Positions 1 to 5,485 of a stretch of DNA of 5,485 nt are shown piece after piece. Under the pieces are notes generated by a model. The model was not told the DNA's origin, made no database searches, and worked only from the letters and a program-made list of their open reading frames with translations. The translations under genes and the position numbers were made by a program. Location of the stretch: the IMG/VR virus record IMGVR_UViG_2671180669_000009. The stretch is one strand, 5' to 3'. The DNA comes from a virus. Lineage: Duplodnaviria > Heunggongvirae > Uroviricota > Caudoviricetes. The stretch's first letter is position 1, and each line of letters opens with the position of its first letter.

Positions 1-51
1 CTGCATGACAAAGTCATCGGGCATTATCTGAACATAAAACACTATCAATAA
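1..51 (+). CDS. insB: IS1 transposase InsB, C-terminal fragment (5' end outside window)
   Basis: In-frame translation [16 protein letters not shown] then TAA at 49-51, identical to the C-terminus of the 167-aa InsB ORF at 3064..3567. Confidence 0.8.
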   Translation: MHDKVIGHYLNIKHYQ

Positions 52-66
52 GTTGGAGTCATTACC
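44..66. repeat. IS1 right terminal inverted repeat (about 23 bp)
   Basis: atcaataagttggagtcattacc is the imperfect reverse complement of the left end ggtgatgctgccaacttactgat at 2815-2837. Confidence 0.85.
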
Positions 67-158
67 AAAAAAACCGCCGAAACGGGTTAAGTGCGGGTGC
101 GTTGAGGATGCCTGACACATCAAAGGTGGCGGGAGATTACTCTCCCGCCTGGTCACTC

Positions 159-314
159 TTACTCTCTAGATTCGTAGTCTACGAAAACAGCGACCTCCGT
201 CTGGCCGATTCGGATTCGTACCTCGCAGAGGTCTTTCCTCGTTACCAGTGCCGTCACAATGACGGTTAAACAGATGACGATCAGGGCGATTAACATCGCC
301 TTTTGCTGCTTCAT
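159..314 (-). CDS. hok: Hok/Gef-family type I toxin (51 aa, small membrane peptide)
   Basis: Internal ATG at 314-312 with AGGAG 9 nt upstream. The product MKQQKAMLIALIVICLTVIVTALVTRKDLCEVRIRIGQTEVAVFVDYESRE has a single TM helix followed by the conserved Hok C-terminal region (TRKDLCE..GQTEVA..YES), closely resembling HokC/HokD as I recall them. Confidence 0.85.
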   Translation of the reverse strand: MKQQKAMLIALIVICLTVIVTALVTRKDLCEVRIRIGQTEVAVFVDYESRE

Positions 315-371
315 AGCCTGCTTCTCCTTGCCTTTCGGCACGTAAGAGGCTAACCTACATTTGTGAGACAT
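159..371 (-). CDS. mok: Mok-like overlapping reading frame (70 aa; in-frame N-terminal extension of hok that couples hok translation)
   Basis: The ORF starting at ATG 371-369 (MSHKCRLASYVPKGKEKQA...) runs in frame into hok, as in chromosomal mok/hok loci; weak GAGG about 9 nt upstream. Confidence 0.5.
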   Translation of the reverse strand: MSHKCRLASYVPKGKEKQAMKQQKAMLIALIVICLTVIVTALVTRKDLCEVRIRIGQTEVAVFVDYESRE

Positions 372-420
372 AGATTGGGCCTCAGATTAATGTTAAGCGT
401 CTTGCAGGACGCGTAATGTT
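360..420 (+). ncRNA. sok: Putative Sok-like antisense RNA overlapping the mok start region (boundaries approximate)
   Basis: By analogy with hok/sok loci, where the antisense RNA overlaps the mok translation start. Candidate sigma70 elements TTGCCT (338-343) and TAACCT (361-366) with a 17-nt spacer; hairpin gcgtc-ttgcag-gacgc at 397-412. Not verifiable without expression data. Confidence 0.25.
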
Positions 421-651
421 AACTGGGGCTTTTCTCTGTCTGCCTTACAGTGACATACCCGAGGCAGACAGCCTCAAGCACCCGCAGCAATCTTACCGAC
501 ACCGATAAGAAAACGCTATTTTTTATTGCCAGCACCATCTATCCAGGCTAGTTTATCTGCGTCAGAACGGCGCAATGCGCTCGCCTGAGATACGTTTACT
601 TGCCATGGTAACAACAGGTAACGGCAATTGCTGTTTCTGTTTTGTTTCCTT

Positions 652-690
652 CAAAAACCCCGGACCATCAATCCGGGGTTTTTGTTTGTT
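652..690. terminator. Rho-independent terminator, bidirectional (ends the minus-strand operon that stops at 769)
   Basis: Perfect 7-bp GC-rich stem ccccgga (658-664) / tccgggg (672-678) with a 7-nt loop, flanked by AAAAA (653-657) and TTTTTGTTTGTT (679-690). Confidence 0.75.
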
Positions 691-768
691 AACCCCAACG
701 GCAAATCGAATACACCACCAGCGCCACCGCCATCGCAATTCCTACCGTGGTGAATGCCTCAGGCCAGG

Positions 769-1134
769 TCATTGATTCACCTCCTGCGGTGGTTCCGGTA
801 GCGGCATCCAGTGAGTTGAGCTCTCTACTTCAACGCCGTCTTTGTCCACAAAAGCCATCTTATTCCCGCCACGAGTGGGGCAAAAAACCTTATCCCAGGA
901 ACCGGGGAATACATTCCCGAGATCATCGAGAAGAATCACATCGCAATATTCAGCAGGAACTGCATCACTACAGCTTATCCAGCCAGCCGGAGCTACCGGA
1001 GAGTTGCCAGCCTTACGCATGGCCATTTCCACGATTTCAACCATATCTCCTGGTGGAATTTTACAAAGTTGCCCAATACATTTCTGCTGCCTGGCATATT
1101 CGAGAATGTGCTCCAGTTTGGTTCGATTAATCAT
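769..1134 (-). CDS. Hypothetical prophage protein (121 aa), last gene of the minus-strand operon
   Basis: ATG at 1134-1132 overlaps the TAA of the upstream gene (TAATG), with AAGGGAG upstream; the ORF ends about 90 nt before the terminator. No family recognised from sequence. Confidence 0.6.
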   Translation of the reverse strand: MINRTKLEHILEYARQQKCIGQLCKIPPGDMVEIVEMAMRKAGNSPVAPAGWISCSDAVPAEYCDVILLDDLGNVFPGSWDKVFCPTRGGNKMAFVDKDGVEVESSTHWMPLPEPPQEVNQ

Positions 1135-1799
1135 TATTTATCTCCCTTAAGCATGGCAGCGCGGCAGGCGTTCCAGCCATCAACATAATCAAACGTATTA
1201 CTATCGTTTGGCCCGATTTCATCCGGCACTATCGGCTCTGGTTGGATAGTGACGTTGGCAAAGGCAGCACGCAAACCGGTTTTAATTTCTTCGATTTCAT
1301 CAGAGCCAAGCGATGAATCTGACAGTGCGTGATGGAATGCGTAAGCCATGTCGTCGTTTACTGCAACCGGCACTGCCGGCGCTGCGTAAAGCGGTGTTAT
1401 ATCTGCCCGAAAATCACATGCTTTATGCAGTCGTACCCAACACTCAACTTCCGCTTTGTCAAAATATATAGCAGTGAACGTATTAGATTCCTGGTCAACT
1501 TGAGTAAACGTCACCTTCCACGCTACAGCTACGGCTTTCCATCCATCAGGTTGTCGCATTCGCGGGGCAGCATAAAGCTCATGCATTCCATCAGGCAGCG
1601 AGTGACCCACATACTCACCGAACCCGTCAATACACATGCCCCCATCTTCAACAATGCATTCCGCTACAGGCTCTGCTTCCAGTGATGCCAGAGCGATAAG
1701 CGCCAGTTCACGAATTTCACCGCCGTCTATATCGTCAATATCATCGCGGCCAGAAATGTTAGCCAGCCATTGCAGTCGCTCTTTGGTAATAGTGGTCAT
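1134..1799 (-). CDS. Hypothetical acidic prophage protein (221 aa)
   Basis: ATG at 1799-1797 overlaps the TGA of the HNH gene (ATGA). Long open frame, D/E-rich, with the motif LYAAP occurring twice (aa 75-79 and 137-141). No family recognised. Confidence 0.65.
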   Translation of the reverse strand: MTTITKERLQWLANISGRDDIDDIDGGEIRELALIALASLEAEPVAECIVEDGGMCIDGFGEYVGHSLPDGMHELYAAPRMRQPDGWKAVAVAWKVTFTQVDQESNTFTAIYFDKAEVECWVRLHKACDFRADITPLYAAPAVPVAVNDDMAYAFHHALSDSSLGSDEIEEIKTGLRAAFANVTIQPEPIVPDEIGPNDSNTFDYVDGWNACRAAMLKGDK

Positions 1800-2161
1800 G
1801 CCGTAGCCCCTTCTTGATATTTTTCAAACCAGAACACAACCGGGTCAGATTTCATTTCAACCAATCCCATACGAACCAGCGCTTTGCCTTTCCCGGACGC
1901 AAGGAATTCACGACGACCATCACTGATAATTCGTCGATAATCTTCCAGGCTACTGCAATGCTTGTGCAGATTGCATGGGTGGCATGCTGGTACCATGTTG
2001 GATATATCGTCACGTTCCTGGTGAAGCATATTTCCATCAAAACGAATGACCGGTTTTACATGGTCTGCATGCCACTTTTCGCCAAGTTCGCAGCCGCAAT
2101 AAGCGCAGCGACCACCGAACTTCATGCGCAGTTCTGCACGTTGTTTTTTCGTCAGTGCCAT
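1796..2161 (-). CDS. HNH endonuclease (121 aa, phage-type small HNH nuclease)
   Basis: MALTKKQRAELRMKFGGRCAYCGCEL..WHADHVKP..NMVPACHPCNLHK carries the CxxC / HxDH / N / CxxC-H signature. Start chosen at ATG 2161-2159 with AAGGAAA upstream; the ORF track's longer version from 2251 adds 30 residues that do not look like protein. Confidence 0.8.
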   Translation of the reverse strand: MALTKKQRAELRMKFGGRCAYCGCELGEKWHADHVKPVIRFDGNMLHQERDDISNMVPACHPCNLHKHCSSLEDYRRIISDGRREFLASGKGKALVRMGLVEMKSDPVVFWFEKYQEGATA

Positions 2162-2162
2162 A

Positions 2163-2381
2163 TCAGCTTTCCTTATACGGATTAATTTTATTGTGCAGTG
2201 TGTTGAATGACGCCCATACCACGTCGTTATACAATTCAATAACTGGCTCAATTATTTTTCCGATTATCCAGACAAAAATTAGCGGGGATATCGGTGTCAT
2301 CAACACGATAAACAGAATGAGAAACAGGAATTCTGTTGTTCTACTCTTTCGCGGATATTTTTTTCTAAATAATGTAACCAT
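2163..2381 (-). CDS. Possible small membrane protein (72 aa; basic N-terminus then one hydrophobic helix)
   Basis: MVTLFRKKYPRKSRTTEFLFLILFIVLMTPISPLIFVWIIGKII...; its TGA (2165-2163) is one base from the HNH ATG (2161), giving a stop-N-ATG junction. Weak RBS and a GC hairpin directly upstream, so the start is uncertain. Confidence 0.35.
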   Translation of the reverse strand: MVTLFRKKYPRKSRTTEFLFLILFIVLMTPISPLIFVWIIGKIIEPVIELYNDVVWASFNTLHNKINPYKES

Positions 2382-2473
2382 TCATTACCGCCCTTTCGGG
2401 CGGTCTCCTGATGATTTGAGGGTGCAGAAATCCCTCCGGTTAAGGATTAAATTTTTAACAGTGCTAAATTTAA

Positions 2474-2814
2474 TTATTCAGTTCTGGATTTTGTCGCCCT
2501 GCGTATCCGCGCTTTCGCGTTACGCTCAATCTGTATCAGCTTTTCTATATTTCTCCGCCTTTCCTGTTCCTCCTGGCGCAATAGCCTTACATCATCTGCC
2601 AGTCTGGTTTCTCTTTTTGCCACAGAGAGCATCCAGTCAAACGGCTCCACAACCGCACCGCAGATTTTACAGCGGACCTGACGCTCTTTTTCGTCAACCC
2701 GTACAGAGGCGTGATGGCAATATGGTCTTTCCGATGGCTCATAAAGAAAATTAACCTGATTACGTGGGTCATCCTCTTTTACCGGAAATAAAACGATATT
2801 GCTTAACTCATCTT
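2474..2814 (-). pseudogene. 3' portion of an IS1-interrupted ORF (zinc-ribbon-like protein, about 118 aa when reconstructed)
   Basis: Open frame ...DDPRNQVNFLYEPSERPYCHHASVRVDEKERQVRCKICGAVVEPFDWMLSVAKRETRLADDVRLLRQEEQERRRNIEKLIQIERNAKARIRRATKSRTE* ends at TAA 2476-2474 and is cut at 2814 by the IS1 left end; the matching 5' part with ATG and RBS is at 3584-3705. Confidence 0.6.
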
Positions 2815-2837
2815 GGTGATGCTGCCAACTTACTGAT
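2815..2837. repeat. IS1 left terminal inverted repeat
   Basis: ggtgatgctgccaacttactgat, imperfect inverted match to the IS1 right end seen at 44-66. Confidence 0.85.
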
Positions 2838-2869
2838 TTAGTGTATGATGGTGTTTTTGAGGTGCTCCA

Positions 2870-3145
2870 GTGGCTTCTGTTTCTATCAGCTGTCCCTCCT
2901 GTTCAGCTACTGACGGGGTGGTGCGTAACGGCAAAAGCACTGCCGGACATCAGCGCTATCTCTGCTCTCACTGCCGTAAAACATGGCAACTGCAGTTCAC
3001 TTACACCGCTTCTCAACCCGGTACGCACCAGAAAATCATTGATATGGCCATGAATGGCGTTGGATGCCGGGCAACTGCACGCATTATGGGCGTTGGCCTC
3101 AACACGATTTTACGTCACTTAAAAAACTCAGGCCGCAGTCGGTAA
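2870..3145 (+). CDS. insA: IS1 InsA (91 aa; zinc-finger/HTH transposition regulator)
   Basis: [39 protein letters not shown]...[12 protein letters not shown] matches the InsA sequence as I recall it. Confidence 0.95.
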
Positions 3146-3567
3146 CCTCGCGCATACAGCCGGGCAGTGACGTCATCGTCTGCGCGGAAATGGACGAACA
3201 GTGGGGCTATGTCGGGGCTAAATCGCGCCAGCGCTGGCTGTTTTACGCGTATGACAGTCTCCGGAAGACGGTTGTTGCGCACGTATTCGGTGAACGCACT
3301 ATGGCGACGCTGGGGCGTCTTATGAGCCTGCTGTCACCCTTTGACGTGGTGATATGGATGACGGATGGCTGGCCGCTGTATGAATCCCGCCTGAAGGGAA
3401 AGCTGCACGTAATCAGCAAGCGATATACGCAGCGAATTGAGCGGCATAACCTGAATCTGAGGCAGCACCTGGCACGGCTGGGACGGAAGTCGCTGTCGTT
3501 CTCAAAATCGGTGGAGCTGCATGACAAAGTCATCGGGCATTATCTGAACATAAAACACTATCAATAA
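3064..3567 (+). CDS. insB: IS1 InsB reading frame (167 aa; expressed as the InsAB' transposase via a -1 frameshift)
   Basis: [53 protein letters not shown]...HYLNIKHYQ, overlapping the 3' end of insA in the -1 frame. Confidence 0.9.
3119..3127 (+). promoter_or_regulatory. IS1 programmed -1 ribosomal frameshift motif (A6C slippery site) between insA and insB'
   Basis: TTAAAAAAC lies in the insA/insB overlap just before the insA stop; established IS1 biology. Confidence 0.7.
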
Positions 3568-3572
3568 GTTGG

Positions 3573-3583
3573 NNNNNNNNNNN
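3573..3583. other. Assembly gap (11 N)
   Basis: Run of n characters directly after the IS1 right-end sequence. Confidence 1.
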
Positions 3584-3689
3584 GCGTGATGGCAATATGG
3601 TCTTTCCGATGGCTCATAAAGAAAATTAACCTGATTACGAGGGTCATCCTCTTTTACCGGAAATAAAACGATATTGCTTAACTCATCTT
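3584..3689. repeat. 106-bp duplicate of 2709..2814 (the flank just left of the IS1), with one mismatch (2765 t vs 3640 a)
   Basis: Direct base-by-base comparison; the copy begins immediately after the N gap. Confidence 0.95.
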
Positions 3690-3705
3690 CTGGTTTTATT
3701 TCCAT
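3584..3705 (-). pseudogene. 5' portion of the zinc-ribbon ORF (start codon plus first ~40 codons); continues into the duplicated flank
   Basis: ATG at 3705-3703 preceded by AAGGAGAGGAG; MEIKPEDELSNIVLFPVKEDDPRNQVNFLYEPSERPYCHHA... is in frame with the 3' portion at 2474..2814 once the duplicate is aligned. Confidence 0.5.
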
Positions 3706-3762
3706 GCTCCTCTCCTTTGATGCGAATGCCAGCGGTAATTGAAGCCTGATAGCTAATTTCAT

Positions 3763-4185
3763 TCACAGTATCGCCTCCTGAAAATTACCCTGATAGAAAG
3801 CCAGTACACGCTGCATAGCTTCGCTCTTCCGGCACTCGCGACAGATTATATTCAGGCGCCTGTCGTAGCGGCGTATTTCTCCGTCAGGTAATGACCAGAT
3901 AAGGTCCGGATCAACAACAACCGGTTTCCTCACCTTTACTCTCGAGAGTTTTTTGCGGGCGCTTTGCCAGTCCTTGCGAGCCTGTTCAGACGGGAATAAG
4001 CCGTAGCCAGAATTATATACATCACCACTTGCGACCAGTTCTATGCATAAGCGACCGACAGACGCACGACTGATACCTGTTTCATCTGACAACTGCCGAA
4101 TCGTGACCCGACCGTCCTGATGCACGAGTTCCACAATTCGCGTCTTCAGTTCTTCCCGCTGTTCGGGAGTAAAAGGTTTCGCCAT
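3763..4185 (-). CDS. Hypothetical prophage protein with N-terminal helix-turn-helix / winged-helix-like region (140 aa)
   Basis: ATG at 4185-4183 with AGGAGG 6 nt upstream, 14 nt after the dnaC-like stop. Segment VTIRQLSDETGISRASVGRLCIEL resembles an HTH; basic C-terminal half. Confidence 0.75.
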   Translation of the reverse strand: MAKPFTPEQREELKTRIVELVHQDGRVTIRQLSDETGISRASVGRLCIELVASGDVYNSGYGLFPSEQARKDWQSARKKLSRVKVRKPVVVDPDLIWSLPDGEIRRYDRRLNIICRECRKSEAMQRVLAFYQGNFQEAIL

Positions 4186-4199
4186 AAATCCTCCTGAAA

Positions 4200-4946
4200 C
4201 TACTTAACAACCCTCGAATGGCTAACATTCGGACGCCAGCTCTCCCAGTTAAAATTCACCCAGCGCCCGCCGTTCATGACCATGCGATCCATCACCCGCT
4301 CGCCGAGCAATGTTTTCATCACCTCATAGTTCAGGTTTGTCAGCATCCCCACGCTGCGCATCGACGCTGTCCGGCGATCAACAATCTGGTGCAGCACCAC
4401 CTGCTCGTTTTTCGTCTCGCGCTGAATGCCAATTTCATCAAGAACCAGCAGATCCACTTCGCACAGCTCCCGCAAAAATTTTTCGCCTGACTGCCCGTCG
4501 TCATAGCTGGCGTGCAGGGCGCTCATAACATCAGCCACGGTAACCACAATCACTGTCTGACCGTCTTTCAGCAGGCGATTCCCGATAGCTGCCGCTAAGT
4601 GATTCTTCCCGGTACCAGGTTTTCCGCTGAACGCAAAATTTGTACACCCGGTCATCAGTTCATCGGCGATGGATTTCGCCTGGCTTAACGCGTATCGCTG
4701 GCCGTCGTTCTGCACCTGGTAATTCGCAAACGAGCATTTACGGTGCAACGGCTGGATGCCTGAGCGATTCAGAATTTTTTCCACCCGCAACTGGCGATTC
4801 AGGCGGTTGATCTCCTCGCTACGTTTCTGGCCTTCAGCAAGTTGCCACTCGCGCCACTCCGCTACCGTTCTGAATGGGGCGGTTACATGTGGCGGGGTCA
4901 GTCGGCGGATGCGTTCCAGAACGCCGCCTGTCGCAATATTTTTCAT
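4200..4946 (-). CDS. DnaC-like replicative helicase loader (AAA+ ATPase, 248 aa), prophage paralog
   Basis: Walker A FSGKPGTGKNHLAAAIG, Walker B DLLVLDEIG, and MLTNLNYEVMKTLLGERVMDRM; collinear and roughly half-identical to E. coli DnaC as I recall it (e.g. RSGIQPLHRKCSFANY vs RSGIRPLHQNCSFENY). Confidence 0.92.
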   Translation of the reverse strand: MKNIATGGVLERIRRLTPPHVTAPFRTVAEWREWQLAEGQKRSEEINRLNRQLRVEKILNRSGIQPLHRKCSFANYQVQNDGQRYALSQAKSIADELMTGCTNFAFSGKPGTGKNHLAAAIGNRLLKDGQTVIVVTVADVMSALHASYDDGQSGEKFLRELCEVDLLVLDEIGIQRETKNEQVVLHQIVDRRTASMRSVGMLTNLNYEVMKTLLGERVMDRMVMNGGRWVNFNWESWRPNVSHSRVVK

Positions 4947-4952
4947 GGTCCG

Positions 4953-5431
4953 TTACCCCCTGAAGCCTGGCGGGATCGCACTGTCCGGCAACGAGACGGT
5001 GTTAACCTGTCGGAGCAACGTCTCAGGCCGAACACCTTTCGGCGCGAACAGGCCCTGGTATTCATTGGCGATGCTGTGTCGAATCACCTGCTCAGGTGTA
5101 AAACCCTGCTGACGGAATTTTTCCAGTTCCCGTATCGCCCCGTTAGCGCCCTGCTCCGTTCGAATCGGTTTTCGCAATGCCTGTCTGAACCGGACCCACT
5201 CATGCCAGAGTGTTTCCGGCAACCAATCGGGCAGCTCAATAGCCTCCGGCTCGAATTTTTTAGACGCTCGTTTTTGGCGAGGGGGAGATCAGTATTTAGA
5301 TCTTCCTCTTCCTCTTCCTCTTCCTCTGGTAACGCTTTTTGATCCGTTTGTGTAACGCTGGCAGCGTTACCTTTTCGTTTCAGTTCGCGTATTTTTGTTA
5401 CTCGCTCGTTTGTAACTGAAGTGGTCAACAA
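4953..5431 (-). pseudogene. DnaT-like primosomal protein gene with an apparent frameshift (N-terminal frame 5431..5084, C-terminal DnaT-like frame 4953..5288)
   Basis: C-terminal frame ends ...LRQVNTVSLPDSAIPPGFRG*, resembling the DnaT C-terminus, and sits directly upstream of the dnaC-like gene as in the chromosomal dnaT-dnaC pair. The N-terminal frame (TTG start, basic region, E8 tract) is offset by one base; the two join cleanly if the G5 run at 5281-5285 were G6. Confidence 0.55.
5301..5327. repeat. Hexanucleotide tandem repeat (tcttcc) x4.5, encoding a poly-Glu (E8) tract on the minus strand
   Basis: tcttcctcttcctcttcctcttcctct read directly; in frame with the N-terminal part of the DnaT-like ORF. 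Confidence 0.9.
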
Positions 5432-5485
5432 AAACTGGCCACCGAGTTAGAGTTTTTCCAGTATCGATTTTCCGATTCGTTTGGG

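Follow-up and report, generated by a model that had tools for sequence, protein, structure and literature searches.

IS1 elements typically leave target duplications of 9 bp, with lengths of about 8-14 bp reported. Lambdoid prophages of E. coli and Shigella are mosaics, in which co-resident prophages share modules set in otherwise different gene contents; the locus described here follows the same pattern, with nothing unusual about it, and such mosaicism is the everyday setting in which assemblers go astray. Among draft assembly procedures, one widely used pipeline, Velvet/SSPACE/GapFiller, contains greedy tools that can make false joins, drops contigs shorter than 300-500 nt and, by the GapFiller default, trims 10 nt from gap edges (Page et al. 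2016, PMC5320598; Boetzer and Pirovano 2012, PMC3446322).

The 5,485-nt stretch of viral DNA analysed here (hereinafter the window) resembles false joins of the SSPACE/GapFiller type in that an N gap separates contigs with shared sequence, the join appears to pass through a collapsed repeat, and contigs end at k-mer-like distances from distinguishing bases. The 10-nt shortfall at both gap edges equals the default trimming of GapFiller. The model predicts neither the 11-N gap of the window nor its 69-nt IS stub. In the window, an IS1 element is preceded by 106 nt that recur after the gap, and we conclude that this "duplication" is very probably an assembly artefact, in which a prophage-1 contig carrying IS1 has been joined across the gap to a contig from a near-identical region of a second prophage.

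The 106-nt repeat and the junctions of IS1

A repeat search and a base-by-base comparison both recover the direct repeat exactly as the original prediction described it, namely as a 106-bp flank repeated across an N gap with one silent change in a Pro codon. Of the 106 positions, 105 agree between the two copies (2709-2814 and 3584-3689), an identity that, inside a 5.5-kb window, could not be due to chance. Their sole mismatch, T at 2765 versus A at 3640, reads on the minus strand as CCA versus CCT in the frame of the 118-aa ORF that starts at 3705. The left copy stops exactly at the left end of IS1 (2814/2815), and the right copy runs uninterrupted through the empty insertion site (3689/3690) toward the ATG of this minus-strand ORF. 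Fusing 2474-2814 to 3690-3705 restores the 118-aa reading frame. IS1 and then the 11 N (3573-3583) lie between the copies, and the N run breaks sequence continuity from one to the other.

The IS1 copy in the window begins at 2815 with GGTGATGCTGCC... and lacks its final 10 nt at the gap. Its products match the Pfam families Zn_ribbon_InsA, HTH_Tnp_IS1 and DDE_Tnp_IS1 (PF03811, 1.3e-21; PF12759, 4.7e-31; PF03400, 5.9e-78). The left inverted repeat (2815-2837) agrees with the right repeat at 18 of 23 positions, the right repeat being taken from the tail of another IS1 copy at the start of the window (44-66) and the right end of the in-gene copy being seen in finished loci. With a length of ~768 bp, imperfect inverted repeats of ~23 bp, InsA and an InsB DDE frame linked by an A6C -1 frameshift, and a short target duplication, the element shows each of the defining features of the IS1 family that were examined.

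The natural context of this insertion was read from ten chromosome-scale contigs of 4.8-5.0 Mb (L004-L013, hereinafter the finished prophage-1 loci), which were obtained by exact-protein look-up of the 221-aa ORF and include CP019689 (Shigella sonnei 75/02). The IS1 of the window is 99.9-100% identical to the copies in these loci. In eight of the ten, the complete in-gene IS1 measures 768 bp and carries AACTCATCTT on both flanks, a 10-bp target duplication in place of the ~9 bp assumed in the original prediction; the duplication is thus known from finished relatives with an identical left junction, the right junction being absent from the window. Likewise in eight of the ten loci, the true right neighbour of IS1 is exactly 139 nt of unique DNA, followed by an IS3-family element that starts with TGAGGTAGCC. 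This right flank of prophage 1 (AACTCATCTTCTGG...GAATACCAGC, with A at the position equivalent to 3728) differs from window positions 3680-3818 at 10 of 139 positions, the first of them 3728, indicating that the post-gap sequence is not the continuation of the IS1 locus.

L007 and L011 have lost the 139-nt remnant together with the final 2 nt of IS1 (locus positions about 8150-8230), so that the TGAGGTAGCC... IS3-family element abuts IS1 directly, a configuration that looks like an IS-adjacent deletion. What looked like an extra IS1 in these two loci is explained by the same deletion.

Table 1. Positions of the annotated features within the window, with strand and supporting remarks.
Feature	Positions	Strand	Remarks
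Last 66 nt of a second, upstream IS1	1-66	+	Right inverted repeat 44-66; bases 1-56 identical to 3517-3572
Prophage-1 segment	67-2814	-	hok/sok, DUF551, 221-aa ORF, HNH, DUF4014 and 3' part of the interrupted 118-aa gene
hok	159-371	-	Pfam HOK_GEF, 1.7e-21; intact toxin ORF
sok antitoxin RNA	309-483	-	Rfam RF01794, full-length match, 118 bits
DUF551	769-1134	-	Pfam
221-aa ORF	1134-1799	-	No family matched
HNH	1796-2161	-	Pfam
DUF4014	2163-2381	-	Pfam
Interrupted 118-aa gene	2474-2814 and 3690-3705	-	Weak zinc-ribbon match, below the Pfam cut-off
Left copy of the 106-nt repeat	2709-2814		Prophage-1 copy of the 118-aa gene; T allele at 2765
Left copy of the 10-bp target duplication, AACTCATCTT	2805-2814	+	Empty sites carry AACTCATCTT once
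IS1, first 758 of 768 bp	2815-3572	+	100% identical to the in-gene IS1 of L004, L005, L007, L010 and L012
insA	2870-3145	+	Within IS1
insB frame	3064-3567	+	Within IS1
A6C frameshift motif	3121-3127	+	Within IS1; TTAAAAAAC at 3119-3127
Scaffold gap of 11 N, very probably a false join	3573-3583		Sides map 1.108 Mb apart in CP104423.1
Prophage-2 segment	3584-5416	-	5' part of the intact 118-aa gene, DUF977, YdaV and partial YdaU/O-like gene
Right copy of the 106-nt repeat	3584-3689		Prophage-2 copy of the 118-aa gene, intact; A allele at 3640
Start codon of the intact 118-aa gene	3705	-	Prophage 2
DUF977	3763-4185	-	Pfam
YdaV, IstB/DnaC-like ATPase	4200-4946	-	Pfam
YdaU/O-like replication gene, C-terminal part	4953-5416	-	Ends at the IS3-family stub
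IS3-family element, first 69 nt	5417-5485	+	TGAAGTGGTCAAC...; marks the contig end; ISEc52/IS911-like

Two prophages on either side of the gap

Outside IS1, the genes of the window all lie on the minus strand and are early and nin-region genes of lambdoid prophages. Window positions 1-3572 are colinear with a prophage remnant (hereinafter prophage 1) of finished S. sonnei chromosomes at 99.7-100% identity. Up to position 2814 the match is full-length and colinear in all ten finished prophage-1 loci at 99.7-99.9% identity, including the upstream IS1 tail, whose junction (52-81) is found in each of the ten. IS1 lies at codons 6-9 of the 118-aa gene in prophage 1. Compared with the finished insertion (for example CP104423.1, 1,982,360-1,983,127, and CP019689), the window has the same left junction, the same IS1, the same upstream IS1 and the same 2.75-kb segment, and the two diverge to the right of IS1, where finished S. 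sonnei chromosomes have the 10-bp duplication, the 139-nt remnant and another IS, whereas the window has the gap followed by the sequence of another prophage; the window also departs from them at 2702 and 2738. The insertion, predicted to inactivate a small prophage gene, is real in itself and can already be found in finished S. sonnei genomes that are public. A search of complete E. coli genomes, a collection that does not include Shigella, returned no instance of the IS1 left junction.

The 2.75-kb segment from hok to DUF4014 lies between two IS1 copies in the same orientation, in the window as in all ten finished loci. This bracketing by two direct IS1 copies fits the protein-collection blocks with the 221-aa protein, in which the longest carrying contig is mostly 2-5 kb.

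The right side of the gap belongs to a different prophage (hereinafter prophage 2), the loci of which were obtained by look-ups of the DUF977 and YdaV proteins. Positions 3584-5416 show no mismatch and a single hexamer-repeat indel against L015-L018, L024 and L028-L033, and one mismatch without a gap against L021 and L026. The 71-nt string that spans the empty site and carries the A allele (3630-3700) occurs in 13 prophage-2 loci. The gene order of prophage 2 is YdaV - DUF977 - intact 118-aa gene - QueH - hok, and the prophage is found in S. sonnei 53G (HE616528.1), FDAARGOS_90 (CP014099) and other chromosomes.

Both prophages reside in CP104423.1 (L004 and L024), where the IS1-interrupted copy and the intact copy, the latter at about 3,091,413, have the same orientation and are separated by 1,108,286 bp. 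What they have in common is confined to a nearly identical module of about 465 bp (window 2388-2814 plus 3690-3727), encoding the putative zinc-ribbon-like 118-aa protein. In finished genomes, four synonymous differences distinguish the module of prophage 1 from that of prophage 2: 2401 C/T, 2702 G/T, 2738 T/C and 2765 T/A. Because all four are synonymous, protein look-up cannot separate the two haplotypes. At 2765, T is present in all ten finished prophage-1 copies, and A is present at the equivalent position in the five prophage-2-type copies that were read (L002, L015, L017, L018 and the 118-aa gene of L020/L022); as judged from these copies, the T/A mismatch is a fixed difference between paralogues. 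E. coli FDAARGOS_943 and FDAARGOS_944 likewise carry both prophage types in one genome, and up to six copies of the shared region occur per E. coli genome.

Origin of the join

Given that the two sides map to different loci and that the repeat copies carry the alleles of two paralogues, a scaffolder very probably joined the paralogues to each other. What carries this reading is the colinearity of each side with a different locus, the real junctions of IS1 and the allele assignment of the two copies. The original prediction of a scaffold join involving a contig that ends in IS1 is thereby supported, the two sides lying 1.108 Mb apart in CP104423.1. As for the partner contig, it had offered either an IS1-free allele or a paralogous prophage; the latter is supported, the right contig being prophage 2 with the A allele, and the former is not, the real right flank of IS1 differing from the right contig at 10 of 139 positions. 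The second prophage with the variant copy that it proposed to look for is present in finished S. sonnei chromosomes, with an intact gene and the A allele, and the local structure, which it had left open, is resolved by the finished genomes. The PCR suggested at the same time, with primers at ~2650 and ~3750, would probably yield two products of ~0.23 and ~1.0 kb and fail to discriminate, both primers lying largely in sequence common to the two prophages.

We infer the assembler mechanics as follows. The source would almost certainly be a short-read draft assembly of S. sonnei or a very close relative. The prophage-1 contig would run into IS1, and a separate prophage-2 contig would begin at the T/A SNP (2765/3640), the first point at which the copies can be told apart. 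To the right of IS1, the real neighbour of 139 nt between two multi-copy IS elements would form a contig of only about 250-270 nt, below the cut-off of 300-500 nt and probably dropped or unusable. Pairs of reads originating in the collapsed shared module (2388-2764) would then connect the two prophage contigs, which the scaffolder would join across a nominal gap, with the shared 106 nt written twice as a result.

Exactly 56 nt separate the start of the right contig from the SNP at 3640, and the end of the left contig overlaps the start of the window by 56 nt. At the insertion site, the stretches identical between the two prophages are short, with 49 nt (2766-2814) to the left and 48 nt (3680-3727) to the right; these are shorter than 56 nt, so a k-mer assembler with k-1 above 49 would neither merge nor break contigs there. 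The three offsets (66, 56 and 56 nt) agree with k = 67 if gap edges lose 10 nt by trimming: k-1 = 66 with this trimming accounts for all three, k-1 = 56 for two. The passage of the left contig through nearly the whole of a multi-copy IS1 is not predicted by the k = 67 model. Together, the offsets suggest, rather than prove, a k-mer assembler with 10-nt gap-edge trimming. A single assembler k derived from the contig-end offsets is offered as a suggestion only, as neither k-1 = 56 nor k-1 = 66 accounts for the 69-nt stub or the 11 N.

Alternatively, the scaffold order could be right, the IS1-bearing prophage continuing into the right contig and only 3584-3679 being redundant and derived from a second, intact copy. 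Mosaics of this kind exist naturally, as illustrated by L020 and L022, in which a left arm of the prophage-1 type runs directly into an intact gene followed by a DUF977 protein identical to that of the window. Their right-side DNA is, however, only about 92.5% identical to the right contig; all ten finished genomes with the IS1 junction have either the divergent right flank or the deletion; and a k-mer assembler should break the right contig near 3680, whereas it is continuous from 3584. We regard this arrangement as very unlikely. A mixed culture, in which IS1-occupied and empty alleles of the same locus were both assembled, would explain the presence of an occupied and an empty site in one assembly, but an empty allele would keep the prophage-1 flank, from which the right contig differs at 10 of 139 positions. 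The right contig instead matches prophage 2 without mismatches over 1.8 kb (apart from the one hexamer-repeat indel), its genes share only about 90.5% identity with the corresponding prophage-1 genes (L007, L013), and the SNP at 2765/3640 is a paralogue difference rather than an allelic one, all of which makes coexisting alleles highly unlikely.

The arrangement might also be taken at face value, as IS1 within a true 106-bp direct duplication on one molecule that arose, for example, by aberrant transposition or recombination. The order of sequences in the scaffold speaks for it and nothing more, and this order is itself interrupted, there being no continuity across the N gap. None of the ten finished genomes with the IS1 junction shows a 106-bp duplication, the two copies carry alleles of two different prophages, and a duplication of 106 bp lies outside the target duplications of about 8-14 bp made by IS1, so that we consider a genuine duplication extremely improbable. 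A hybrid locus on one molecule, with recombination or gene conversion between the prophages having placed IS1 between paralogous 106-nt copies, is judged to be highly improbable. In a milder version, only the prophage-2 alleles at 2702 and 2738 in the IS1-bearing copy would be real, and these two positions would then be the trace of gene conversion over a short tract, the prophages involved lying 1.1 Mb apart.

If, as we favour, two paralogues were mis-joined, the record contains a false adjacency: genes of two prophages are abutted, 106 nt are written twice and the real right junction of IS1 is hidden. Gene calls, synteny analyses and surveys of IS sites that use the record would be wrong at the join, and draft scaffolds of IS-dense Shigella genomes should be treated as unreliable wherever an N gap falls within a prophage module. 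The significance of the case is one of quality control only. The 106-nt flank duplication would be a scaffolding artefact of a well-known kind and not a genomic feature. The two ORF products that span the N have no exact match on record, that is, no identical artefact was found.

Allele states, related arrangements and the contig end

Over its 2814 nt, the left contig departs from the majority of finished S. sonnei prophage-1 copies only at 2702 and 2738. It carries T and C there, which are the prophage-2 alleles, and keeps the prophage-1 alleles at 2401 and 2765, implying that the prophage 1 of the source is identical to none of the ten finished copies. The two positions reflect either gene conversion over a short tract, with prophages about 1.1 Mb apart as partners, or a chimeric consensus built from collapsed reads. 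An exact-pattern scan of metagenome contigs and GTDB representative genomes, in which the left junction was allowed any base at the three SNP positions, gave no match, and no second carrier of the T-C-T haplotype was found.

An uninterrupted arrangement within a single prophage is seen in L020 (CP189683.1) and L022 (CP097831.1), chromosomes of 4.5-4.7 Mb, where locus positions 9240-13152 read YdaV - DUF977 - intact 118-aa gene - DUF4014 - HNH-like - 221 aa - DUF551 - hok. We label this arrangement ancestral. The DUF977 protein of both is identical to that of the window.

At the right end of the window, the IS3-family stub is 98.5% identical to the end of an element annotated as ISEc52 in L001, and its terminal sequence recurs elsewhere in the fetched loci with different flanks. 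Its junction with the prophage (5416/5417) is absent from all 33 fetched loci, and the insertion in the YdaU/O-like gene is either strain-specific or another contig-end effect. Upstream of this junction, (CTTCCT)4 at 5302-5325 encodes, on the minus strand, a poly-Glu run of the YdaU/O-like replication protein. Finished S. sonnei genomes have between 4 and 7 copies of CTTCCT, and this variation is all that separates the right contig from most of them.
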